Shown: positions 22,489 to 64,000, numbered from the stretch's first letter. The stretch: DNA of 64,000 bases from Patescibacteria group bacterium (GCA_040757555.1 JBFLWN010000006.1:5748-69747), one strand, 5' to 3'. The notes: generated by a model from the sequence alone, not told the origin. Made by a program: numbers and translations.

Positions 22489-25400
22489 TTATTTATTTTT
22501 CTTTATCGCAACTTTCATCGGCCACTCATCTATTTTGGTATCTATCTCCGCATGCAATATTTTTGGTTTCGAGAAAAGAATATTTTTCGCGTTTACTAAT
22601 TTCTTAAATTCAGTGTTCCATTTTGTTATCACAAACTTCAACTCCTCTGATGTTTCAATATATAACTCAATTACATCCTTTGGTTGTAATTTTGCGTCCT
22701 GACGTAAATCCTGAACAATCCTCGTAAGTTCGCGTAGCCACCCCTCTTCTTTTAATTCGTGGGTAATTACCGTATCGAGCACCATGTGGTCGTTTGTCTT
22801 CTCGGAAAAAATCACCTCTTTCACATTTATTTCATCTTTCAAAATATCAAGATACGCGTGTTTTCCTTTTAATAGCGATGTTTTTGAGTTGAGAGTAACC
22901 GAGGTAAGTGGTTGGCGCACCTTAATTCCTAACTCCGCACGTTTCGCAAGTGCGAGACTCGCCACAGCACGTACTTCATCCATACATGCAAATAAATCTT
23001 TATCAATAAACTTCTTTTGTGCTGTTGGCCACTCATCCAAGTGCACGGAAAGTTTTTTTCCGATAAGTGACTGATAGAGCGCCTCCGTAAAAAATGGGGT
23101 AAGCGGTGCCATAAGTTTACTTATTTCGAGAAGGACAAATCCAAGTACGCGTGTGGCGATTTCATAATCTTTCTTATTCTCGGGTTTTTGGAATCGCTTT
23201 CGTGAGCGTCGGATATACCACCTCGAAAGATCATCAACAAACGATTCGATTGCCTTTCCTGCGCTTCCGATATCATATGTTTCAAACCCCACTGTCGCCT
23301 TCTCGGTTGTTTCTGCAAATCTCCCCAATATCCACTTGTCGAGAAGCGGAAGGGACGCGGGAAGTGTTTTGTTTTTTACTTTTGCCCCATAAAGGTCGAA
23401 AAACACAAATGAATTATAGAGAAGTGAAAAAAGCTGGCGGGAAACCTTTCCGAGTTCCATTTCGTCAAAACGCTTTGATTCCCCCGGAGGATTTGTAGTA
23501 TAAAAATACCATCGTGCCGCATCGATACCATATTTTTTTATCATGTCCCACGGATCGACGATATTTCCTTTTGATTTGGACATTTTCTGCCCGTTCTTAT
23601 CGAGAATAAGCCCCGAAGAAATAACATTTTTAAACGGCGTCCCCTTTCCGGTAAGCACCCCAATTGCAAGAAGTGTATAAAACCATCCACGTGTTTGATC
23701 AATTCCTTCGGAGATATAATCCGCAGGGTAGGCAAGTTTATTTTTTTTATCGAATGGATAATGTGATTGTGCAAATGGCATTGCACCCGAATCAAACCAT
23801 ACATCAACTACTTCGGGTATTCGTTTCATAACTCCCTTGCATTTTTTACAAGGAAACTTAAATTCGTCGATAAATGGACGATGCAAGTCGAGTGATCCGG
23901 TCGCATCCCGCGGAACGTTTTTCATCATTCCCTTCTCGAATCCGGCATTTCTTATATAATCAAATCCTCTTTTTTCCTTTTCAATTAATTGATCTTCTGT
24001 GGACCATCCGCTGATAATGGAGTGGAGCATGTAGACGGGCCCATCGTGCGTCACCACAAGGATTGTTTTGTTTTTATATTTCTTTTCTGTCTCAATAAGA
24101 AATTCAAATAAACGTTTTCGCAAATCCGTATGATTTTCCCCATTCGGCATTCGTTTTGTGAATTTCTCTAAACGTGAACTATAATACGGCTGAAACGACT
24201 CATATTTTTTTCCATTGAAATCCCCAAAGTTGAATTCCCGAAGTCGCGCATCAAAGATGACCTTATCCTTAAATCCGACAATTTCCTTTACGGTCTCGGC
24301 GGTTTGTTTTGTTCGTGTTATATCCGAAGCAAAAATCATGTCTATTTTTTCTTTCTTCAGTATGCGCGCAGTTTTTTCCACCTGCGTTCTTCCCAAAAGT
24401 GTAAGTGGCAACTTCACCGGTTCGGGCCAACAATTCAACAAATGTTTTGTGTTATTCTCTGCCTGCCCATGACGCATAAAAATATACCGATTTGTCCCCC
24501 CTCCCAACGCCTCCTTAAACTCATCAACGCTCCCCACCACTCTCCGTGCCTCACATGAATCACACTCCCAGATTGGAAGTGGGGTGCCCCAATACCGTTC
24601 ACGAGATATTGCCCAATCTTTTACCTCACGAATCCATTCACCAAACCTTCCCTCTTTTAGATGACTGGGAACCCAATTTATTTTTTTGTTTTCAGTAATA
24701 AGTTTTTCCCTCAATGCACTCATCCCAATAAACCACGAACTGCGCGCATAATAGAGGAGCGCGGAATTGCAACGCCAGCAAAATGGATATTCGTGCTTAT
24801 ATTTTTCGGTTCGCAAGAAAAAATTCTTCTTTCTCAATGATTCAAATATTTTTTCATCTGTGTTTGGATTTTTTGCGGGCAATCCGGAAAATTCCTCAAT
24901 TTCTTCCACAAATCTTCCTTGTTCGTTCACTGTGTGGTATTCGGGTAGTCCAATTTTTTTCCCAAGCACATAATCATCCTCTCCATACATAACTGCAGTG
25001 TGCACCACACCAGTTCCGTCTGTTGTGGTAACAAAATCCGCAGCATATACTTTATAAGCTTTTTCTTTAGGGTCTATTTTTTTGATCGCGGGTATTTTGA
25101 ATAACGGCTCATACAAAAGCCCCACAAGATCTTTTCCTTTTATTTTTTCGATTTCGGTATATCCAATTTCGAGAATCGACAATCGCGGGGTTGCGAGAAT
25201 ATACGTTTCGGATATTTTTCCCTCTTTTATCGCCACAATCGAATAATCGACGTGTGGAGCGATTGCAAGCGCAATGTTTCCAGGAAGCGTCCATGGCGTG
25301 GTCGTCCAAGAAAGAATATAGGTATGTGGTCCCACTATTCTTTTTCCGATTTTCTGTTTTTCTTTTAATTTGAATTTCAAGTACACAGAGTTTTCCTCAA

Positions 25401-25995
25401 CCTCACGATACCCAAGTGCCAATTCGTGCGATGAGAGTCCAGTGCCACACCGAGGACACCACGGAACTACTTTGTGTCCACGGTATAATAATTTTTTTTC
25501 TGCAGTTGATTTAAAAATCCACCACAGTGTTTCTATATATGAGTTTTGATACGGAATATATGGGTCTTTGAGATCAAGCCAAAACCCCATTCGTTTGGTA
25601 AGCCTTTCCCACTCATCCTTATATTTCCACACCGATTCTTTGCATTTTTGGTTGAATTCGGCAATCCCAAATTTTTCAATCTCTTTTTTTGAGGAAAGGC
25701 CAAGTTGTTTTTCAACCTCAAGCTCAACGGGTAACCCATGCACATCCCACCCCCCTTTTCGCGGAACTACATATCCACGCATGGTTTTATATCGCAACAC
25801 CACATCCTTAAATGAGCGCGAAAGAACATGATGAATTCCCGGTTTTCCATTTGCTGTTGGGGGACCTTCATAAAAAACAAATTTTTTCCCCTTGTTTTTT
25901 GTAAGCGAGCGCTTAAAAATATCGTGTGCGTCCCAAAAATCAAGGACTTTTTCTTCGACGTCAGGAAGTGAAAATTTATCTAATCGTTTAAGCAT
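22489..25995 (-). CDS. ileS: isoleucyl-tRNA synthetase, type 2 (eukaryote/archaeal-like), with an inserted histidine-phosphatase-superfamily domain (ORF track extends to 26049; MLKRLDK at 25995 is the likely start)
   Basis: HIGH-region PPTANGKPGIHHVLS; CP1 editing domain; zinc knuckle WCPRCGT / CDSCEA; KMSKS. The DLHRPFIDE...CKKCKG...VDVWFDSGAMPFAQ block matches type 2 IleRS. An extra ~180 aa containing RHGQAENN ... VVTHDG sits between the zinc knuckle and DLHRP. Confidence 0.9.
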   Translation of the reverse strand: MLKRLDKFSLPDVEEKVLDFWDAHDIFKRSLTKNKGKKFVFYEGPPTANGKPGIHHVLSRSFKDVVLRYKTMRGYVVPRKGGWDVHGLPVELEVEKQLGLSSKKEIEKFGIAEFNQKCKESVWKYKDEWERLTKRMGFWLDLKDPYIPYQNSYIETLWWIFKSTAEKKLLYRGHKVVPWCPRCGTGLSSHELALGYREVEENSVYLKFKLKEKQKIGKRIVGPHTYILSWTTTPWTLPGNIALAIAPHVDYSIVAIKEGKISETYILATPRLSILEIGYTEIEKIKGKDLVGLLYEPLFKIPAIKKIDPKEKAYKVYAADFVTTTDGTGVVHTAVMYGEDDYVLGKKIGLPEYHTVNEQGRFVEEIEEFSGLPAKNPNTDEKIFESLRKKNFFLRTEKYKHEYPFCWRCNSALLYYARSSWFIGMSALREKLITENKKINWVPSHLKEGRFGEWIREVKDWAISRERYWGTPLPIWECDSCEARRVVGSVDEFKEALGGGTNRYIFMRHGQAENNTKHLLNCWPEPVKLPLTLLGRTQVEKTARILKKEKIDMIFASDITRTKQTAETVKEIVGFKDKVIFDARLREFNFGDFNGKKYESFQPYYSSRLEKFTKRMPNGENHTDLRKRLFEFLIETEKKYKNKTILVVTHDGPVYMLHSIISGWSTEDQLIEKEKRGFDYIRNAGFEKGMMKNVPRDATGSLDLHRPFIDEFKFPCKKCKGVMKRIPEVVDVWFDSGAMPFAQSHYPFDKKNKLAYPADYISEGIDQTRGWFYTLLAIGVLTGKGTPFKNVISSGLILDKNGQKMSKSKGNIVDPWDMIKKYGIDAARWYFYTTNPPGESKRFDEMELGKVSRQLFSLLYNSFVFFDLYGAKVKNKTLPASLPLLDKWILGRFAETTEKATVGFETYDIGSAGKAIESFVDDLSRWYIRRSRKRFQKPENKKDYEIATRVLGFVLLEISKLMAPLTPFFTEALYQSLIGKKLSVHLDEWPTAQKKFIDKDLFACMDEVRAVASLALAKRAELGIKVRQPLTSVTLNSKTSLLKGKHAYLDILKDEINVKEVIFSEKTNDHMVLDTVITHELKEEGWLRELTRIVQDLRQDAKLQPKDVIELYIETSEELKFVITKWNTEFKKLVNAKNILFSKPKILHAEIDTKIDEWPMKVAIKKNK

Positions 25996-26063
25996 AATTA
26001 TCAATTTTAGACGAAAAGAAGGCTTTTTACAAAAGCCTTCATTCCACACATTCCCCCCTGAGA

Positions 26064-44652: not shown

Positions 44653-46326
44653 ATGTTCCTCGCAAAAAAACTTCAAGAACAACTTCAAAAACAAAGAAAA
44701 ATTGCGGAGGAAAACGACGCAAAAAGGAGAGCAACACAACTCGGGATTCCCTATCTCGATCTTATTGGTTCGAAAACCCCAATTGAATTAAAGGCGCTTG
44801 GGGTAATAAAAGAAGAAGAAGCGAAAAAAGCACTTATTACTCCGTTTCAAATTGATCAAAAAAAACTCTTTGTTGCCGCATTTAACCCCGCGCTTCCCGA
44901 ATCAAAAACACTCATTGAGTCTTTAAAACAGAAATTTGAACTTCATATTGTGATCTCTTCAATGTTGTCGTTACACCATGGGTGGTCATATTACCAATAT
45001 GTGGGTGAGGTGAAAGAAATTTCGGGAAGTGTAGAAATCAACGAAGCACATATCAAGGAATTTCAATCAGAAATAAAAAGTCTTACTGATTTTTCCTCTG
45101 CACTAAAAAACTTCAAAAGCCCATATACCTCTCAAATTCTTGAGATTATTCTCGCGGGAGCAATGGCAATGAAAACATCAGATATTCATCTTGAACCAAG
45201 TGAAAACGAAAATTCACTCCGCCTTCGCGTCGATGGACTTCTCCATACTATTTTTTCAGAATTTACTCCTCTCGTATATAAATCGGTAGTTACACGCATA
45301 AAACTTCTCTCAAATTTAAAACTCAACATCCATAACGAAGCACAAGACGGACGATTCACCATACGACTAAGCGACCGCGACATCGAAGTTCGAACCTCGG
45401 TAATTCCTTCCGAATATGGCGAAACACTTGTACTCCGACTCCTTGATCCACTTTCCTTGAAAGCAAACCTGGAAGAATTAGGATGGCGCACTGACGATCT
45501 TGATATTATAAAAAAAGAAATTGATCGACCGAATGGACTTATTTTAAACACAGGACCCACCGGGTCTGGAAAAACTACCACACTCTATGCGTTTTTAAAA
45601 TATATTACCGATCCAGAAATAAAAATAATTACCATTGAAGACCCCATTGAATATCACCTCGAAGGAATTTCACAAACACAGGTTGATGCTGATGCAAATT
45701 ATACGTTCGCAAGCGGACTTCGTTCGATTTTACGTCAAGATCCCGACATTGTGCTCGTGGGAGAAATTAGAGACAAAGAGACCGCTGAAATTGCGATGAA
45801 TGCATCACTTACTGGACACTTAGTGTTTTCAACACTTCACACAAATGATGCGGTGGGCGCAATCCCCCGTCTTATCGATTTGGGTGCAAAAACACAAATT
45901 ATCGGACCTGCATTGAATCTCGTCATTGCGCAACGTCTCGTTCGTGTGCTTTGTCCAGAATGTAGAGTGCCCATCGCGATAAATGACGAACAAAAAGAAA
46001 AAATAAAAAACTTCATAGAAAAACTTCCGGCGCGCGTGGATAAAAAAGAATATGAAACATACACAATCTATGGACCAAAAGGATGCCCCGCGTGTGCAGG
46101 AATCGGATATAAAGGACGTATTTCAATATTCGAACTTTTTGCAATCTCGGAAAAAATAGAAGAATTAATTTACAAAAACCCAACTGAGCTTGAGTTAAAA
46201 GAAATTGCACAAAAAGAAGGAATGGTAATGCTCCAAGAAGATGGGTTCTTAAAGGTATTAAAAGGAAAAACAAGCATCGCTGAGGTGGAACGTTTGGCGG
46301 GAAAAATTGAGTGGCTGGAGGGATAG
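44653..46326 (+). CDS. pilB: type IV pilus / type II secretion assembly ATPase (PilB/GspE family)
   Basis: GspE N-terminal domain; Walker A ILNTGPTGSGKTTTLYAFL; Asp box; Walker B/His box VGEIRDKETAEIAMNASLTGHLVFSTLHTNDA; tetracysteine motif CPECRVP...CPACAG. 557 aa. Terminator gaggcaccataaaaaattttgtggtgct follows. Confidence 0.85.
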   Translation: MFLAKKLQEQLQKQRKIAEENDAKRRATQLGIPYLDLIGSKTPIELKALGVIKEEEAKKALITPFQIDQKKLFVAAFNPALPESKTLIESLKQKFELHIVISSMLSLHHGWSYYQYVGEVKEISGSVEINEAHIKEFQSEIKSLTDFSSALKNFKSPYTSQILEIILAGAMAMKTSDIHLEPSENENSLRLRVDGLLHTIFSEFTPLVYKSVVTRIKLLSNLKLNIHNEAQDGRFTIRLSDRDIEVRTSVIPSEYGETLVLRLLDPLSLKANLEELGWRTDDLDIIKKEIDRPNGLILNTGPTGSGKTTTLYAFLKYITDPEIKIITIEDPIEYHLEGISQTQVDADANYTFASGLRSILRQDPDIVLVGEIRDKETAEIAMNASLTGHLVFSTLHTNDAVGAIPRLIDLGAKTQIIGPALNLVIAQRLVRVLCPECRVPIAINDEQKEKIKNFIEKLPARVDKKEYETYTIYGPKGCPACAGIGYKGRISIFELFAISEKIEELIYKNPTELELKEIAQKEGMVMLQEDGFLKVLKGKTSIAEVERLAGKIEWLEG

Positions 46327-56977: not shown

Positions 56978-58360
56978 CTACGACTTATACAACCGTTCCT
57001 TTATAAGCATTATTTTTTGATTAAATTGCTGATTTTTATTTATTTCTTTTTCTATTTTTTCACACGCATGAATTGCAGTCGTATGATCCCTTTTTCCCAA
57101 CTTTTCCCCAATGTGGGGATACGAGAGTTTCAATATATCCCTCAAAAGATACATTGCAATTTGACGGGGTTCCACCACTTCTTTTTTTCTACTTCGATCA
57201 GTAAGTTCTGCCTGAGAAACCTCAAAAAAGTCCGCAACCGCCTTAATAATTTCTTGAACAGTGAGGTTTTTTGATGTGGTTTGGGTTGTTTCGTTTATGA
57301 TTTCATCGAGTTTTTTTCCATCAATTCCATCCTTGTGTTGAATATAAAACACCACCTTATTTAATACCCCCTCCAATTCCCTGATGTTTTTTTGTACTTT
57401 TGAGGCAATGTGTTCAAGCACCTTATCTTCAACAACAATTCCTTTTCTTTGTGTTTTTGTTTTTAAAATTGCCAAACGCATCTCATAATCCGGATAACTA
57501 ATATCAGCAATCATTCCCCCCTCAAATCTCGAGCGTAGGCGCTCTTCAAGTGTCGGAATTGCAGAGGGCGGTCTATCAGAAGAGATAATAATTTGTTTGT
57601 TGTTTTCATAAAGTGCATTGAATGTATGAAAAAATTCTTGTTCGGTTGCGGCTTTCCCACCAATAAACTGAATGTCGTCGATAATAAGGACATCCACGTC
57701 TCTATATTTCTTTTTCATATCATCAATTCTTTTATTTCGAATACCAGAAACAACATCATTCAAAAATTTTTCTGAAGTTACGTACAGCACCGCAATATTT
57801 TTTTGATATTGTTTTATAATTTCATTTCCCACCCCTTGAATAAGATGAGTTTTTCCGAGTCCAACACCCCCATACACGAAAAGAGGATTATATTTTTTCC
57901 CAATATCTTTTATTACTGCTTGCATCGCTGCGTATGCAAGTTCGTTTGATGAGCCAACAATAAACGAATCAAGTGTATATCGTGGATTTAAGTTTGTTTT
58001 AGGATCAATTTTAAGTTCAAGGGGAAGTTGAAAATTTGATTCATTTTTTTCTTCATTTACCCCCTTTTTTGTTTGTGTTGCAAAAGAATTCGTCCCGCTA
58101 TTTGTTGTTTGGTGGGATACAGAGTAATCAATGTTTTTTATTGAGGGATCAAAATTTCGAAGTGATCCGAGAATGATTTTGTGATAGCGGTTTTTTACCC
58201 ACTCTTTCGCAAAGTTGTTTGGAAGACTTACGAGCGCCACCCCATCTCGTTCATTCTTTCCAATAAGCTGACTTTGTTTTAACCACGTAAGAAAATTTGG
58301 TCGCGAAATTTGCAATTCTATTTCTCCCAACACAGCCCTCCAAAGTTCTTGTGATTCCAT
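56978..58360 (-). CDS. dnaA: chromosomal replication initiator protein DnaA
   Basis: N-terminus MESQELWRAVLGEIELQISRPNFLTWL; AAA+ Walker A NPLFVYGGVGLGKTHL; C-terminal DNA-binding domain (MYLLRDILKLSYPHIGEKLGKRDHTTAIHACEKI). 460 aa. Confidence 0.9.
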   Translation of the reverse strand: MESQELWRAVLGEIELQISRPNFLTWLKQSQLIGKNERDGVALVSLPNNFAKEWVKNRYHKIILGSLRNFDPSIKNIDYSVSHQTTNSGTNSFATQTKKGVNEEKNESNFQLPLELKIDPKTNLNPRYTLDSFIVGSSNELAYAAMQAVIKDIGKKYNPLFVYGGVGLGKTHLIQGVGNEIIKQYQKNIAVLYVTSEKFLNDVVSGIRNKRIDDMKKKYRDVDVLIIDDIQFIGGKAATEQEFFHTFNALYENNKQIIISSDRPPSAIPTLEERLRSRFEGGMIADISYPDYEMRLAILKTKTQRKGIVVEDKVLEHIASKVQKNIRELEGVLNKVVFYIQHKDGIDGKKLDEIINETTQTTSKNLTVQEIIKAVADFFEVSQAELTDRSRKKEVVEPRQIAMYLLRDILKLSYPHIGEKLGKRDHTTAIHACEKIEKEINKNQQFNQKIMLIKERLYKS

Positions 58361-58640: not shown

Positions 58641-58886
58641 ATGAGTTTTTTTATTGTAAAAAAGAACAAGAGCGGGTCACAAAAAAAACCGCTCTTTATT
58701 GTTATCCGAGCGGCAGATATACAAACCGCAGTGAAAAGGAATGTGTTAAAGAGACAAATACGCACAATTGTCCAGAGAAATAAAAAAAACACAACATCCG
58801 GATATGATTACAAAATAATTGTAAAAAAAGGAGGAGACATGCTATCATTTGAACAAATTAAGAGAGAGATTGAACCATATTTGTAA
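58641..58886 (+). CDS. rnpA: ribonuclease P protein component, unusually short (81 aa)
   Basis: Position after rpmH and the RNR-like motif VKRNVLKRQIRTIV. Only ~30 residues precede the motif, versus ~60 in typical RnpA. Confidence 0.65.
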   Translation: MSFFIVKKNKSGSQKKPLFIVIRAADIQTAVKRNVLKRQIRTIVQRNKKNTTSGYDYKIIVKKGGDMLSFEQIKREIEPYL

Positions 58887-58900
58887 CTATTATTAATTTT

Positions 58901-59572
58901 ATGAGCGGAATTTTCCATACATACCTTTATTCTCCAATTTTGTGGGTTTTTATATTTATTTATGAGAACCTTGCATTTAAAGATATTGGGTTTTCAATTT
59001 TTATTCTCACCGTGCTCGTGCGTGTGGTGCTTTTTCCAATTTTTTATAAAAGCGCAAAGGACCAGTCGCTCATGCAAAGAATTCAGCCGAAGTTAAAAAA
59101 AATTCAGACCGATCACAAAGACAACAAAGAAGAACAAGCGCGGCAAATGATGAATTTGTACAAAGAAAACAAACTAAATCCTTTTTCTGGATTTCTTTTG
59201 TTACTCATACAACTTCCTGTTTTTATTGTGCTGTTTCAAATTTTTACCAGAGAACTTTCGACATCGGTGTTTGACAATCAACTATTTTTAGGCTTAATTA
59301 ACCTAGGAGAGAAGAGTATTATTATCGCGATTATTGCCGCTGGATTGCAATACTTACAAAGCAAATTACTTCTTCCCCCATCTTCAAAGGAAAACAAAGA
59401 TGAAGATACAATGGCGCGCGTTGGGAAAACGATGGTAGTGGTAGGGCCGGTACTTACGTTTTTTATATTAATGAATCTTCCATCGGCACTCGGATTTTAT
59501 TGGGTGATTTCATCACTTTTCTCTATCGCACAACAGGTTTATATTAATAAGAAAATACCAAAAGAATTGTAA
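58901..59572 (+). CDS. yidC: membrane protein insertase YidC (short Gram-positive/Oxa1-type)
   Basis: Five-TM core with conserved VRVVLFPIFYKSAK...NPFSGFLLLLIQLPVFIVLFQ, in rpmH-rnpA-yidC-jag synteny. 223 aa. Confidence 0.85.
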   Translation: MSGIFHTYLYSPILWVFIFIYENLAFKDIGFSIFILTVLVRVVLFPIFYKSAKDQSLMQRIQPKLKKIQTDHKDNKEEQARQMMNLYKENKLNPFSGFLLLLIQLPVFIVLFQIFTRELSTSVFDNQLFLGLINLGEKSIIIAIIAAGLQYLQSKLLLPPSSKENKDEDTMARVGKTMVVVGPVLTFFILMNLPSALGFYWVISSLFSIAQQVYINKKIPKEL

Positions 59573-59577
59573 TATAT

Positions 59578-60006
59578 ATGGACAACATACTTGAATCAAT
59601 AAAAATTATCGTGGAAAAAATGGGATTTCCCGGTGCGGAAATATCATTTGATCAGGAACACAGAAAAATGTCTTTAGTGATAGACGAAAAACTCATACAC
59701 GAAAACATCGGTATGTTTTTACCCGCACTCGACCATCTTTTTGGTCTCGTGTTTAGAAAACACGAACAAGCACCATTTGTGCTTGATGTGAACTATTATC
59801 GGAGGGAGAGAGAGCGGTTAATTGCCGAACTCGCACGAGCATCCGCAAAGAAAGCAATGGTAACAAAAACAGACATCGAGTTGCCTCCAATGAATGGATA
59901 TGAACGAAGGTTGGTACACATGGAAATCACCACCCACCCAGAATTAAGAACAGAAAGTGTTGGGGAAGGAAAAGAACGAAGGGTGGTAATAAAACACATT
60001 GAATAA
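59578..60006 (+). CDS. jag: Jag/KhpB RNA-binding protein (KH-like plus R3H domains)
   Basis: C-terminal R3H motif (ELPPMNGYERRLVHMEITTHPELRTESVGEG) and synteny after yidC. Terminator atcccgatatatatcgggat plus T-tract at 60011-60038, bidirectional. Confidence 0.75.
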   Translation: MDNILESIKIIVEKMGFPGAEISFDQEHRKMSLVIDEKLIHENIGMFLPALDHLFGLVFRKHEQAPFVLDVNYYRRERERLIAELARASAKKAMVTKTDIELPPMNGYERRLVHMEITTHPELRTESVGEGKERRVVIKHIE

Positions 60007-60038
60007 AAAATCCCGATATATATCGGGATTTTTTATTG

Positions 60039-61241
60039 TTAAATTTCTTTTGATATATCAATTCGATAGAGGGTGTTATCAAATCGGTTTTTGAAATATA
60101 TATAATTCTCAAAAAACATTACCCCCGTCGCATCGGTTTTATAGGTGATAGCGGCAGATGCGCTTAACACCCCAATTTCTTTTGTTGAAAGATTAAATTT
60201 CATAAGTGTGTCGGTGGTAAATATTTTTCTTTGTTGATATGAATCGAAAAAACCAATATAGTCATTTTGTTCTTGCGGAACAAAACAATAGGTAGTGCTC
60301 GCAAATAAATCACACTTATCGGGGATTGTGAAAAAATCCACATAGGTTGTTGTTTTTAGTGAGTTGGTGATAAAACCAAGTTGTTTTTTTGACGGGATAG
60401 AGAAAAATATATTCTTTTTGTCTTTTGAAAAACCGGGTGTCCCTCCCCGTTCCGTTTGGACAACAAGTGATAGACTTTGATCTTTCTGATTGAATTCCCA
60501 CACCCTTGAAGGATAAAAACTACTTGATCTTTCAGAAAATAATATTCTGTCAGTCGGCACAACCGAAAGGAAAACATCGTTTAAAACAAAATCTTTTAAC
60601 AGTGTTTTGTATGTTGGTTGAGCCTTTTCAATATTTATTTCCACCAAATCTTTTTTCCCCGAGTTTTTGACTATTCCAAAAAGTTTTTTTTCCGAACCCC
60701 CCCACACCACACTTACCAAATCAGAAGAGAGGGGTTTCCATGTTTTATCAACTACATTAAATATTCCGGTTTGAAGATTGTTTTTTTCCCCGAATGATGC
60801 AAGTATTTTTTCTCCTGTTTGATTCGGAAGAAGCGCATATATTGTTCCTACGGCTTGTGGCGATATTTTTTGATCATCTTCTGTTTTTGCGAGATAGACA
60901 TCTCCATCGGAATTGGTATAGAAAATCTCGTTTGTCTTTTTATTTACCCAAAAATATCCAATTTCTTGGTCTGATAATTTTTCAAGTATTGGAAGAGTGT
61001 CTCCTTGTATTTCAGATGGTGACCCCTCGGTGTTTTCACTGCCAGCGCCCTCGGGAACATCTCCGTTGTTTGTGTTTGTAACAATATTTTCACTACCACC
61101 CGGAAGAGTGTTTATTTTTGTGTTATCTATTGATACGTCTTCAATTGGTGTTCCAAAGACGACCTTCCAAGCAAAATACAATCCTGCAATACAAACAATT
61201 CCAATAAGGGTAAGAACAATTATTTTTTTTGTTTTACTCAT
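60039..61241 (-). CDS. hypothetical membrane-anchored extracytoplasmic protein (last gene of the minus-strand operon at window end)
   Basis: 400 aa, N-terminal TM anchor IIVLTLIGIVCIAGLYFAW, followed by a low-complexity linker (NTNNGDVPEGAGSENTEGSPSE) and a beta-rich domain. 3-nt gap to the upstream gene. Confidence 0.35.
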   Translation of the reverse strand: MSKTKKIIVLTLIGIVCIAGLYFAWKVVFGTPIEDVSIDNTKINTLPGGSENIVTNTNNGDVPEGAGSENTEGSPSEIQGDTLPILEKLSDQEIGYFWVNKKTNEIFYTNSDGDVYLAKTEDDQKISPQAVGTIYALLPNQTGEKILASFGEKNNLQTGIFNVVDKTWKPLSSDLVSVVWGGSEKKLFGIVKNSGKKDLVEINIEKAQPTYKTLLKDFVLNDVFLSVVPTDRILFSERSSSFYPSRVWEFNQKDQSLSLVVQTERGGTPGFSKDKKNIFFSIPSKKQLGFITNSLKTTTYVDFFTIPDKCDLFASTTYCFVPQEQNDYIGFFDSYQQRKIFTTDTLMKFNLSTKEIGVLSASAAITYKTDATGVMFFENYIYFKNRFDNTLYRIDISKEI

Positions 61242-61244
61242 AAA

Positions 61245-62486
61245 TTATTTAAAATTAACATGTATATGTTCTACTTGTTCGTAATAATTACCACAATCTT
61301 TTGCGTACGAGCGATTTTGATATGTGGTGCATATTTTTGATATATTCGAGTTGTTATTTTTCAAATAATTCAAAAGTTGTGTGTTTGTTGATAAATCAAC
61401 AACTGGTTTGTCAGCCCCATGTGTTGCGTGTCCATTCTCTGCCCCCCCCGTTATTGTAACGTCACACGCACACGATTTTTTTATATTTATCACCGCATCG
61501 ATTGTTGAAGCCGGAAGGAGTCCGACGTTTGTGCACTTAGGATTAAATGGATCTGCACAATTTCCAGAACTACTCACACGCACTCCATTCAAAGCAAGTT
61601 TTTCAACTGCTTTTTTTTCTGCGGCATCCATACCAGTGGTATATGAAGTTTTTGTGTACTTACAATTCCCATCAAATCGGTTAATGATACAACATGTTTG
61701 ATTATGGTCCTTGTCCCATCCCCACCCATCATCATTACACTCTGCTTCGCCCCCATTTTGCTCTATTGCGAGGCAACAACTTATCCCATCTATATTTGGG
61801 TCGCTGGATGCTGCTTTTCGGCACTCTTCTTTTGAATCTTTATAACAATATCCCCACTCTGTTTTTGTGACTGGCTTATCTTCTGTTGAATATTTACATT
61901 CGCCAATAATTTTGTCTTTCAAACAACAACTTTTTTTACTTGCGTTGTCATATCCCCATCCGTCGGTTTGACATCGCGCTTGCCCCCCATTTACATCAAC
62001 CGCGACACAACAACTATCTTTTTTTTGTTCATCCCACTCCCAGACCTTTTCTGTAAGGACTTGAGAATTGCTAATAAATTGTGGACCCTGTGGTTCTCGA
62101 ATTGCAATAAGTTGCGGGTTTATTGTATTTAAAATGACATATGCACCAAAAAGCAGACCAAGCCCCCAGAGCGCAGAAAAAATCATATCCTTCCCCTCAT
62201 TTTGTTTATCAGGACTTCCCCCGGAAACCGTATATAATATTCCTCCTGCCACCATCATTCCAACAGCCAATATTCCCGATATACCAATTGCGAATTGATA
62301 AAGTCTTCGGATGTAATTGGGAATACTTGCGGTTGTGTCAGCAGAAGCACAATCAGTGTATCCGAGAACTTGTGTGCCAAAACTGGTACAAGGGAATTTA
62401 TAATCTATTATTGCCGCGTGTACAGTGAAACTAAACAAAAAGAACAAAACAAGAAAAAAGACTATTTTTAAATTTGATTTTGCCAT
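61245..62486 (-). CDS. secreted/membrane protein: TrbC/VirB2-like two-helix pilin-type module fused to a Cys-rich internally repeated extracellular domain
   Basis: Signal peptide (IVFFLVLFFLFSFTVHA). Hydrophobic hairpin FAIGISGILAVGMMVAGGILYTVSGG-SPDKQNEGKD-MIFSALWGLGLLFGAYVILNTI with Gly-rich packing faces like VirB2/TrbC pilins. Then two tandem repeats SCCVAVDVNGGQARCQTDGWGYD / SCCLAIEQNGGEAECNDDGWGWD and further Cys pairs. 413 aa. Confidence 0.4.
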   Translation of the reverse strand: MAKSNLKIVFFLVLFFLFSFTVHAAIIDYKFPCTSFGTQVLGYTDCASADTTASIPNYIRRLYQFAIGISGILAVGMMVAGGILYTVSGGSPDKQNEGKDMIFSALWGLGLLFGAYVILNTINPQLIAIREPQGPQFISNSQVLTEKVWEWDEQKKDSCCVAVDVNGGQARCQTDGWGYDNASKKSCCLKDKIIGECKYSTEDKPVTKTEWGYCYKDSKEECRKAASSDPNIDGISCCLAIEQNGGEAECNDDGWGWDKDHNQTCCIINRFDGNCKYTKTSYTTGMDAAEKKAVEKLALNGVRVSSSGNCADPFNPKCTNVGLLPASTIDAVINIKKSCACDVTITGGAENGHATHGADKPVVDLSTNTQLLNYLKNNNSNISKICTTYQNRSYAKDCGNYYEQVEHIHVNFK

Positions 62487-62488
62487 AA

Positions 62489-63160
62489 TTATTGTATAAA
62501 AAGATTTATTTTTTCTTTCGCAGACTCGAGTCCATTTTTTACATTTTGAACAAACGCCTCAATCACCATATTTTTTTGATCCGGTGTTTTTGGGGAACCA
62601 ATATTTAGTGTAAGAAGGGTGTCGCGCGTCTCGTTTTGTTTTTCCCCATTAATTCGCCACAAAGAAGTGATTTCAGATGGAGAAGAGATATTGAAAAAAA
62701 ACGGAACAACCAAAAAAGTAACCCTTTCTCCCGAGGCAACAAGCCCTCTCGGATATTTATTTTCAATTGTTATTATTGGGTTAAAAACAGGAACAGAAAC
62801 AAGATTTTCATATTTATTTGTTTTTGTTTGGACAACAACACGCACAGAATGAGAACTCCTTCCGATTTTTGTTATAGGAAACGAGAACTCTTTTAATCCA
62901 ACACCCTTATTAGAAAACACACCATCGAGGAACCATGATATCTCAGCTTGAGAAATGTTTTGTATTTTTTTATTTATAAGAAGTTCCACAGAGACTGCGA
63001 TTATATTACCATTGGTTGGGAGTGGCTTTGCTTCAAAGTCTGCCGAAGTATAGTTGTCCGCGTGCCACGTGACGAGGAGGTTGTTTTCTGTTTGTCCAAA
63101 AACATTCGAGAAAACAAAAAAGAAGGAGAGGAATAAAACAAATAAAACTTTTACACTCAT
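62489..63160 (-). CDS. hypothetical secreted protein (signal peptide, beta-rich)
   Basis: Signal peptide MSVKVLFVLFLSFFFVFSNVFGQTE. 223 aa. 2-nt gap to the downstream gene, same operon. Confidence 0.35.
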   Translation of the reverse strand: MSVKVLFVLFLSFFFVFSNVFGQTENNLLVTWHADNYTSADFEAKPLPTNGNIIAVSVELLINKKIQNISQAEISWFLDGVFSNKGVGLKEFSFPITKIGRSSHSVRVVVQTKTNKYENLVSVPVFNPIITIENKYPRGLVASGERVTFLVVPFFFNISSPSEITSLWRINGEKQNETRDTLLTLNIGSPKTPDQKNMVIEAFVQNVKNGLESAKEKINLFIQ

Positions 63161-63182: not shown

Positions 63183-63614
63183 CTACTTTTTTATCGCTGA
63201 GCCAATTTTTCCACTCGCGACAGAGGCAATTTTTTGTGCTTTTGGGTTGTTTTCTATAAAAACAATAAGAAACCAAGCCGAAATTGCAAAAGGAAACATA
63301 CCTAGAATTGGAAATGAATTCATCATGTTTCCCCCAAGGCTTGATACCCACGTCCACACCCCACGAGCACCCTTCATAAAAATATAGAGTTGAAAAAACG
63401 CACCAACAGTAAGACTTATTGCACTTCCAATAAAAGAGGACACTTGCCCAAGAATGGGTATGGGGAACATAAGGTTTGCAAAAAAATCGATTAATTCTAC
63501 AAAAAAAAGAATGAGGGTTACTAGGATAAACTCTCCTGTTCCAAACATCTTTTTTCTTTCCCCGGTGTTTATCTCGGGTGTCTTTTTTTCTCCCCCTTTT
63601 ATTTCTTTTGGCAT
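63183..63614 (-). CDS. small polytopic membrane protein (3 TM), possible VirB3/VirB6-like accessory of the adjacent VirB4-like ATPase
   Basis: 143 aa with hydrophobic segments FILVTLILFFVELIDFFANLMFPIPIL, SSFIGSAISLTVGAFFQLYIF and FPILGMFPFAISAWFLIVFI. Starts 4 nt after the upstream ATPase-like gene. Confidence 0.35.
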   Translation of the reverse strand: MPKEIKGGEKKTPEINTGERKKMFGTGEFILVTLILFFVELIDFFANLMFPIPILGQVSSFIGSAISLTVGAFFQLYIFMKGARGVWTWVSSLGGNMMNSFPILGMFPFAISAWFLIVFIENNPKAQKIASVASGKIGSAIKK

Positions 63615-63617
63615 ATA

Positions 63618-64000
63618 TTACGACAACAATCCTTTTGTTTGTAGCACTTGTTCGGGGTTTGTAGTGATTATTTGGTCTTCAGTGTATGACGCAATGATTT
63701 TTATTGCTACATGTTTTAGTCCCGCAAAAAAGAGTCCTTCTCCTACCCCCGCCTCAAGAAGAAGTGATTGTTCGCCACTGGTTAAATCAAATGCTTGTGT
63801 TACCGCATCAATACTTGATGGAGACTGTTTTAAGAGTAGTTGTATTGAGGAATTAGTGACGATTGGTTTTCCATATTCTGATTTTAGGAAGTCCTCAACA
63901 TCTTGGGTTATGGTAGTAACCCCCAAATAATATTTCCTGGCGCGTTTTACCAACCCAAACAAAAATGACGCACTGTCTTTATATTTCATCATCCACCACG
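63618..64000 (-). CDS. C-terminal fragment of a VirB4/TrbE/TraC-like conjugative-type ATPase (gene continues beyond window end)
   Basis: C-terminal block ...YYLGVTTITQDVEDFL...PIVTNSSIQLLLKQSPSSIDAVTQAFDLTSGEQSLLLEAGVGEGLFF matches the VirB4 C-terminal pattern (ATQS...I.EN..TKIFLPN......LS..E..L) from memory. The ORF is open at the window edge, so 5' partial. Confidence 0.45.
   Translation of the reverse strand, partial: WWMMKYKDSASFLFGLVKRARKYYLGVTTITQDVEDFLKSEYGKPIVTNSSIQLLLKQSPSSIDAVTQAFDLTSGEQSLLLEAGVGEGLFFAGLKHVAIKIIASYTEDQIITTNPEQVLQTKGLLS

Follow-up and report, generated by a model that had tools for sequence, protein, structure and literature searches.

The window analysed here, a 64,000-nucleotide stretch of a Patescibacteria chromosome, breaks off inside an open reading frame (ORF), and the question raised by this locus is which ATPase the interrupted gene encodes and whether that ATPase serves conjugation. 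The first-pass annotation had described it as a partial VirB4-like conjugative ATPase of 124 amino acids running off the edge of the window. The ORF was found on the minus strand, which that description had left out, and its stop codon TAA (TTA on the plus strand) occupies 63618-63620. From there the frame is indeed open up to base 64000, giving 126 complete codons (63621-63998) and two further bases, 63999-64000, which form a partial codon xCG and fit Ala (GCG). The ORF was therefore real as described, while the count of 124 had begun at an internal Met (ATG) at 63992 and 126 codons can be read. The fragment spans the region from just after Walker B to the C-terminus, and the start of the gene is expected beyond base 64000 together with about 454 further codons.

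63618..64000, minus strand: 3' end of virB4, comprising 126 codons, part of one more and the stop TAA

Downstream of Walker B, proteins of the VirB4 family are expected to bear an R-K...T-Q block and an N...LL.Q block, and both were observed in the fragment, with TITQD at residues 29-33 and IVTNSSIQLLLKQ at residues 46-58. The two motifs as they occur in the fragment, KRARKYYLGVTTITQD and IVTNSSIQLLLKQ, align to residues 282-388 of PDB entry 4AG5. Both blocks had been named in the first-pass annotation and are present, only its pattern 'I..N..I.LL.Q' being one residue out of register. Across 79 relatives, 62 alignment columns show conservation of 90% or more, and the window matches the consensus at 61 of these.

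Profile searches assigned the fragment to the same family. NCBIfam NF045971 (VirB4-like conjugal transfer ATPase, CD1110 family) matched it with E=9.1e-18 at profile positions 638-733 of 752; the score of 63.9 bits stands against a cut-off of 325 set for the whole protein, of which the fragment makes up 126 of approximately 580 residues. The Mycoplasma ICE VirB4 model (E=7.5e-14) and the F-type TraC model (E=4.1e-12) were also matched, and the sole Pfam match was PF19044 ('TraG P-loop domain'; 28.2 bits, gathering score 25.8). The only solved structure matched was 4AG5, the C-terminal domain of Thermoanaerobacter VirB4 (E=6.2e-14, chain residues 282-388 of 392). When 5.8 billion proteins were searched, 2,117 homologues of the fragment were obtained (best E=5e-67, identity up to 89%), and at least 569 relatives were confirmed among the 600 pattern matches listed, with one genome per species. 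The best 80 GTDB loci, to which the fragment is 68-85% identical, were nearly all from Patescibacteria, including Jorgensenbacteria, Paceibacterota, Saccharibacteria, Peregrinibacteria and Gracilibacteria. Identity to CPR proteins was 70-89%, reaching 98% for the VirB4 of the closest locus (L083, described below), whereas the closest plasmid VirB4s, whose hosts are monoderm bacteria (Firmicutes, Actinobacteria), were at most 35.5% identical. Because of these identity levels to CPR proteins and to plasmid proteins, the fragment would be placed in the published Patescibacteria clade. The assignment to the C-terminal region of the VirB4 family was thus upheld by NF045971, PF19044, 4AG5 and the 2,117 homologues, and we conclude, with a probability of roughly 93%, that what is visible here is the C-terminus of a VirB4 ATPase belonging to a chromosomal, monoderm-type (MPF-FATA-related) type IV secretion system (T4SS) typical of Patescibacteria.

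For the part of the gene past base 64000, L083, a locus from JGI sample 3300013131 that was reached via the pilin protein encoded near virB4 in the window, was used as a proxy. It covers the last 12.8 kb of the window in a single colinear match of 85% nucleotide identity, with the same gene order and near-identical gene lengths. Its VirB4 has 580 aa, of which residues 455-580 are identical to the fragment at 124 of 126 positions; Walker A (AKSGSGKS) is found at residue 240 and Walker B (DEAW) at 452-455, and the entire protein scored 366.2 bits on NF045971, above the curated cut-off of 325. The VirB4 of L001, one of the 80 loci (L001-L080), has 595 aa and is 85% identical over the fragment; it scored 369.5 bits on the same model and aligned to residues 32-388 of 4AG5, Walker A and B included (E=4e-45). 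On the alignment with the L083 protein, the first complete residue of the fragment is the W of DEAW. The motif DE[A]W stands directly ahead of the homologous residues in 79 of 80 relatives, and the D and E of Walker B would, judging from these relatives, lie 2-3 codons outside the window. Walker A was found in 77 of 80 relatives, the exceptions being two that are cut by locus ends and L046, a short ORF of 259 aa; in the window gene it would be situated approximately 215 codons past base 64000, near residue 240. The complete protein would have about 580 aa, as in its near-identical, syntenic relatives. The length of the ATPase body comes to about 580-595 aa in the closest relatives and to about 580-640 aa where the genome is of the Paceibacteria or Saccharibacteria type.

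A few relatives departed from this size. The virB4 ORF of L039 (L039 6581-10408) encodes 1,275 aa, its length being due to an intein that bears a LAGLIDADG homing endonuclease and interrupts the protein before the region matching the P-loop domain (Intein_splicing 59.9 bits, LAGLIDADG_3 72.4 bits). In L006, L011, L014 and L028 (Peribacteria/Peregrinibacteria) the ORF encodes 840-950 aa, and a tblastn search with the TrsD-like protein of L001 as query gave no TrsD-like match in these four loci, where the N-terminal domain of VirB4 may still be fused to the ATPase body; the L006 protein also matches TraC_F_IV at residues 465-547. In addition, full-length VirB4 was more conserved than DnaA in 32 of the 32 loci that have both genes, a comparison biased by the choice of loci on VirB4 similarity; in the same VirB4-selected set (L001-L080), the median identities to L083 were 60% for VirB4, 41% for DnaA, 32% for YidC and 31% for DnaN.

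In the relatives, the sequence matching the initial ~180 positions of the VirB4 profile comes from a gene of its own upstream, which codes for a TrsD-like protein (216 aa in L083 and 219 aa in L001). This protein matches both the TrsD/TraD family (NF041427, E~1e-9) and the N-terminal positions of VirB4 models. TrsD-like sequence was detected upstream of virB4 in 57 of 80 loci and PrgI-like sequence in 53 of 80. The PrgI (VirB3-like) gene, situated upstream of the TrsD-like one, is likewise separate and encodes 162 aa, the L083 copy scoring above the Pfam cut-off, and a large polytopic VirB6/TrbL_3-like gene is present on that side as well. Since the TrsD-like and PrgI-like genes stand apart, there is no VirB3-VirB4 fusion in these relatives, and the suggestion that the missing N-terminus might carry a VirB3-like fusion finds no support in the closest of them. 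By synteny, the window virB4 would be preceded by TrsD-like, PrgI/VirB3-like and VirB6/TrbL-like genes.

On the other side of the gene, virB4 is the first visible member of five tightly packed minus-strand genes with gaps of 2-22 nt. The four genes that follow it, and the neighbours up to dnaN, are listed here.

63183..63614, minus strand: small polytopic membrane protein of 143 aa, beginning 3 nt past the virB4 stop and conserved by position
62489..63160, minus strand: secreted protein of 223 aa, with an N-terminal signal-like helix and an otherwise beta-rich sequence
61245..62486, minus strand: T4SS pilin-domain protein of 413 aa (PF18895, 38.7 bits against a cut-off of 26.6)
60039..61241, minus strand: protein of 400 aa, anchored in the membrane at its N-terminus, closing the operon, synteny conserved
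60002..60037, no strand assigned: perfect hairpin with a 16-bp stem and T-runs on both strands, between the T4SS operon (minus) and jag (plus)
59578-60006, plus strand: jag/R3H
58901-59572, plus strand: yidC
58641-58886, plus strand: rnpA
56978-58360, minus strand: dnaA
55647-56762, minus strand: dnaN

The 143-aa membrane protein gave no family match with Pfam and NCBIfam profiles. A gene of 127-143 aa occupies the equivalent position in L001, L081 and L083, the window copy being 76% identical to that of L083, and the L001 counterpart showed a sub-threshold hint of TraL (E=0.037). The 223-aa secreted protein is found at the same position in 12 related loci, and profile searches gave no family for it. 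A weak similarity (E=1e-4) was seen between this protein and the N-terminal extension of P0153, a pilin protein from another metagenome; this hints at a gene fusion elsewhere and at a functional link. The 400-aa anchored protein, for which profile searches also gave no family, was found in 12 loci, its L083 counterpart having 398 aa and 78% identity. The hairpin that follows is likely a bidirectional terminator serving both the T4SS operon and the convergent jag gene.

From the virB4 stop at 63618 to the dnaA start at 58360 the distance is 5.3 kb, with rnpA, yidC and jag in between and dnaN just past dnaA, and this layout, with dnaA located 5-8 kb downstream of virB4, was seen again in 35 of the 80 loci. 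The cumulative GC skew over the window gave no clear origin signal, so that the position 'next to oriC' given in the first-pass annotation rests on the dnaA/dnaN/rnpA/yidC cluster. Its two other statements on the neighbourhood, that the downstream genes belong with virB4 and that this is a CPR chromosome, held true: a T4SS pilin-domain gene is in the same operon, and dnaA is 5.3 kb away. With the gene identified as virB4, the last 4 kb of the window are to be read as the distal half of a Patescibacteria T4SS operon and not as a mobile element.

Systems of this kind have been described before. VirB4 was reported in 2,417 of 3,035 Patescibacteria genomes (Quinonero-Coronel et al. 2025, PMC12102498), and 2,425 of 2,474 VirB4 proteins formed one clade nested in the monoderm MPF-FATA class (PMC12102498). 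In that survey TrsD was the most abundant component accompanying VirB4, PrgI/VirB3 was separate with no VirB3-VirB4 fusions, VirB2-like pilins were encoded near virB4, relaxases were almost absent, and virB4 of Paceibacteria and Microgenomatia was close to dnaA, dnaN, rnpA and rpmH (PMC12102498). In Southlakia epibionticum, the T4SS cluster (SEML1_0006-0019) was essential for epibiotic growth by Tn-seq (Wang et al. 2023, PMC10633639); it contains pilins and is devoid of a recognisable coupling protein and relaxase (PMC10633639). A 2025 review called it the first T4SS found essential for survival of its own bacterium (PMC12857230), and another article described its role as completely unknown, with effector delivery and nucleic-acid acquisition as speculations (PMC11665869). 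The VirB4/T4SS feature of the window is thus already described (PMC12102498, PMC10633639), and the view that a VirB4 gene in such a chromosome beside the origin is notable does not stand, VirB4 being common in Patescibacteria and often near dnaA/dnaN/rnpA (PMC12102498). The wider interest lies in the system itself, which is nearly universal in a phylum holding a large share of bacterial diversity and which epibiotic growth requires in the single species examined for it; the window locus is another example of it rather than new knowledge.

Of the systems already characterized, the Patescibacteria-clade T4SS resembles the locus most fully: it shares the VirB4 with MPF-FATA affinity, the separate TrsD-like and PrgI/VirB3-like genes upstream (seen here in relatives), the VirB2-like pilin gene close by, the lack of a relaxase or coupling protein nearby and the location beside dnaA/dnaN/rnpA. 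No substantive difference was noted. Exact look-ups of the two window proteins adjoining virB4 gave no match in the collections searched, and the closest protein found is 98% identical over the fragment. Within this group, Saccharimonadia have arrays of small pilins; the window locus has just one pilin-domain gene, whose product is greatly extended at its C-terminus. The CD1110 family (NF045971), known from CTn2 of Clostridioides difficile and from monoderm plasmids and ICEs, is the best-scoring curated family; it has the C-terminal motifs in common, and full-length relatives of the fragment pass its cut-off (366-369 vs 325 bits). However, identity to its plasmid members is 30-35%, the CPR protein does not include the first ~180 profile positions, and the CPR gene sits in a non-mobile chromosomal setting that lacks a relaxase. 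TrsD/TrsE of the Staphylococcus plasmid pGO1, from the MPF-FATA subclass whose separate TrsD protein resembles the N-terminal part of VirB4, show the same split into a TrsD-like protein (approximately 216-219 aa) and a following ATPase body, but pGO1 itself is conjugative: the plasmid encodes a relaxase and a coupling protein and has no VirB2-like pilins. Lastly, VirB4 of Thermoanaerobacter pseudethanolicus (PDB 4AG5/4AG6) aligns with the fragment at residues 282-388; unlike the window gene, it belongs to a conjugative element of a Firmicute, and its identity over the fragment, as read from the alignment, is roughly 40%.

The title of the first-pass annotation implies a conjugative element, either an ICE or an integrated plasmid, by which DNA would pass to other cells. 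In favour of this, the curated families that match best take their names from conjugal transfer ATPases, the nearest non-CPR homologues are encoded on conjugative plasmids of Firmicutes and Actinobacteria, and the published phylogeny nests the CPR clade in the conjugative MPF-FATA class (PMC12102498). However, a scan of 31 ORFs of the window and of the ~7 kb preceding virB4 in L001 and L083 turned up neither a relaxase nor a coupling protein nor an integrase, the place beside dnaA is kept in 35 of 80 species-level relatives, the GC content of the virB4 region (0.36-0.37) matches that of the whole window, and the identity of VirB4 to its relatives tracks and exceeds that of DnaA. The published survey counted relaxases in 103 of 3,035 genomes, with 15 relaxase genes close to virB4 (PMC12102498). 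A conjugative element is very improbable on these grounds, and the word 'conjugative' in the first description is not supported, no relaxase, coupling protein or integrase having been seen in the window ORFs and upstream stretches scanned and the same chromosomal place being held in many species. The T4SS cluster is a native, positionally fixed part of the chromosome and does not represent an integrated mobile element. The name of the only Pfam match, 'TraG P-loop domain' (PF19044), and the contact of full-length relatives with DUF87/HerA would speak for a related P-loop ATPase instead of VirB4, namely a coupling protein (VirD4/TraG), FtsK or HerA. Against this, every significant NCBIfam match of the fragment was of the VirB4/TraC type, the matched solved structure is a VirB4, and in relatives a TrsD-like gene aligning to N-terminal profile positions of VirB4 stands directly upstream. 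No coupling-protein model (VirD4/TraG/TcpA) matched the fragment at E<=1, and the only such match in a relative was TIGR03743 with 15.3 bits in L001, vs 369.5 on the VirB4-like model; TIGR03783, the conjugative-transposon 'TraG', is itself a VirB4 homologue. Such an identity is scarcely credible, and the coupling-protein, FtsK and HerA candidates were rejected on profile scores.

Whether the gene is a decaying remnant of a once functional T4SS gene was considered likewise, since only its tail is visible in the window and many of the best database matches are short partial proteins of 120-221 aa. The short matches that were looked up, however, sit at contig ends, and the word-based search probably favours short entries. 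Between the fragment and L083 there are 56 base differences, 51 of them at third codon positions, and the codon differences are 51 synonymous vs 2 nonsynonymous, showing that purifying selection acts strongly on the fragment; up to the window edge the frame is uninterrupted, and 61 of the 62 highly conserved columns are retained. The likelihood of a pseudogene is close to nil. A truncated or fragmented gene was rejected as well, the short matches being at contig ends and the virB4 ORF being at least 570 aa in 75 of the 80 genomic loci. Another reading bears on what is transported and leaves the VirB4 identity intact: the ATPase could drive a DNA-uptake system like Helicobacter ComB or archaeal Ced, bringing in DNA or nucleotides from the host for a cell that cannot synthesise them. 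Full-length relatives weakly match CedB and CedD (40-41 and 19-20 bits), and a 2024 perspective named the T4SS as a candidate nutrient or nucleotide route, ComEC being dispensable and the T4SS essential in S. epibionticum (PMC11665869). Yet with cut-offs of 700 and 600 bits the Ced models are far from being reached, the matches reflecting the common P-loop core, and no experiment in any Patescibacterium shows import via the T4SS. We regard such a DNA-uptake role as unlikely.

With the fragment read as the end of a Patescibacteria VirB4, its action can be sketched from established knowledge of the family. The protein would be a membrane-associated hexameric ATPase docked on a VirB3/VirB6 platform, where ATP hydrolysis would power channel assembly and pull pilin out of the membrane to let the pilus grow. 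The most likely role of the T4SS is host-cell interaction, by protein export or by uptake of host material, rather than conjugation. This is favoured because no relaxase or coupling protein is nearby and because the T4SS is essential for epibiotic growth of Southlakia epibionticum, and we place non-conjugative host interaction well ahead of conjugation.

The sole lead beyond the literature consulted is a pilin fused to a probable cell-wall peptidase domain. The 413-aa protein consists of a signal peptide, a VirB2-like T4SS pilin domain (residues 52-122), a cysteine-rich middle modelled with low confidence and a compact C-terminal domain (about residues 285-413), which reached a pLDDT of 92.4 when modelled alone. 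In 26 homologues of the protein, H356, D364 and H407 were invariant and H409 was near-invariant, and three relatives read H-Y-x-G-x-A-x-D, which we take to be the zinc-site motif of M15/LAS peptidases. For the C-terminal domain alone, a word-based homologue search found nothing, Pfam gave no match at E<=10, and sequence and profile searches against the PDB returned chance matches only. Foldseek was uninformative with the model of the whole protein, whose middle is disordered. With the domain-only model it returned the LD-endopeptidase VldE (probability 0.69, E=0.29), and the structural neighbours were phage M15A/M15B/hedgehog-type peptidases and peptidase domains of tape-measure proteins (best E=3.8e-3, probability 0.98; none at E<=0.001). 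In its predicted fold the domain looks like a LAS-type cell-wall zinc peptidase, and the modelled protein fits a membrane-anchored, outward-facing cell-wall peptidase fused to a pilin module.

A pilin-anchored peptidase domain of this kind may stand in for VirB1. The VirB1 function is mostly missing from Patescibacteria T4SS clusters (PMC12102498), and a text search of that paper found no mention of a pilin-peptidase fusion. A more far-reaching proposal would be that the origin-proximal VirB4, more conserved than DnaA in every relative compared, powers a pilus machine that is essential but not conjugative, and that the one pilin-domain subunit of this machine comes with a LAS-type zinc peptidase of its own, cutting peptidoglycan of the cell itself or of its host and so supplying the VirB1 function. 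We put this forward tentatively and consider it rather doubtful as a whole; if it were true, the pilin-borne peptidase would point to breaching of the host envelope as the job of the system.

The rest of the window is ordinary chromosome of housekeeping character, encoding a CCA-adding enzyme, RecG, RNase Y, RNase J, IleRS, ArgRS, a ClpB-like protein, a PilB-type ATPase, PolA, PBP1A, RuvB, MurB and tmRNA. The T2SSE/PilB-type assembly ATPase (44653-46326, plus strand, 387 bits) is encoded 17 kb from the T4SS operon and is probably a component of type IV pili, which are the second surface machine with reported essentiality in Saccharibacteria (PMC12857230). The IleRS (22489-26049, minus strand, 1,186 aa) bears a His_Phos_1 domain at residues 523-685 (E=4.9e-31), and this histidine phosphatase domain sits between the two halves of the catalytic domain.
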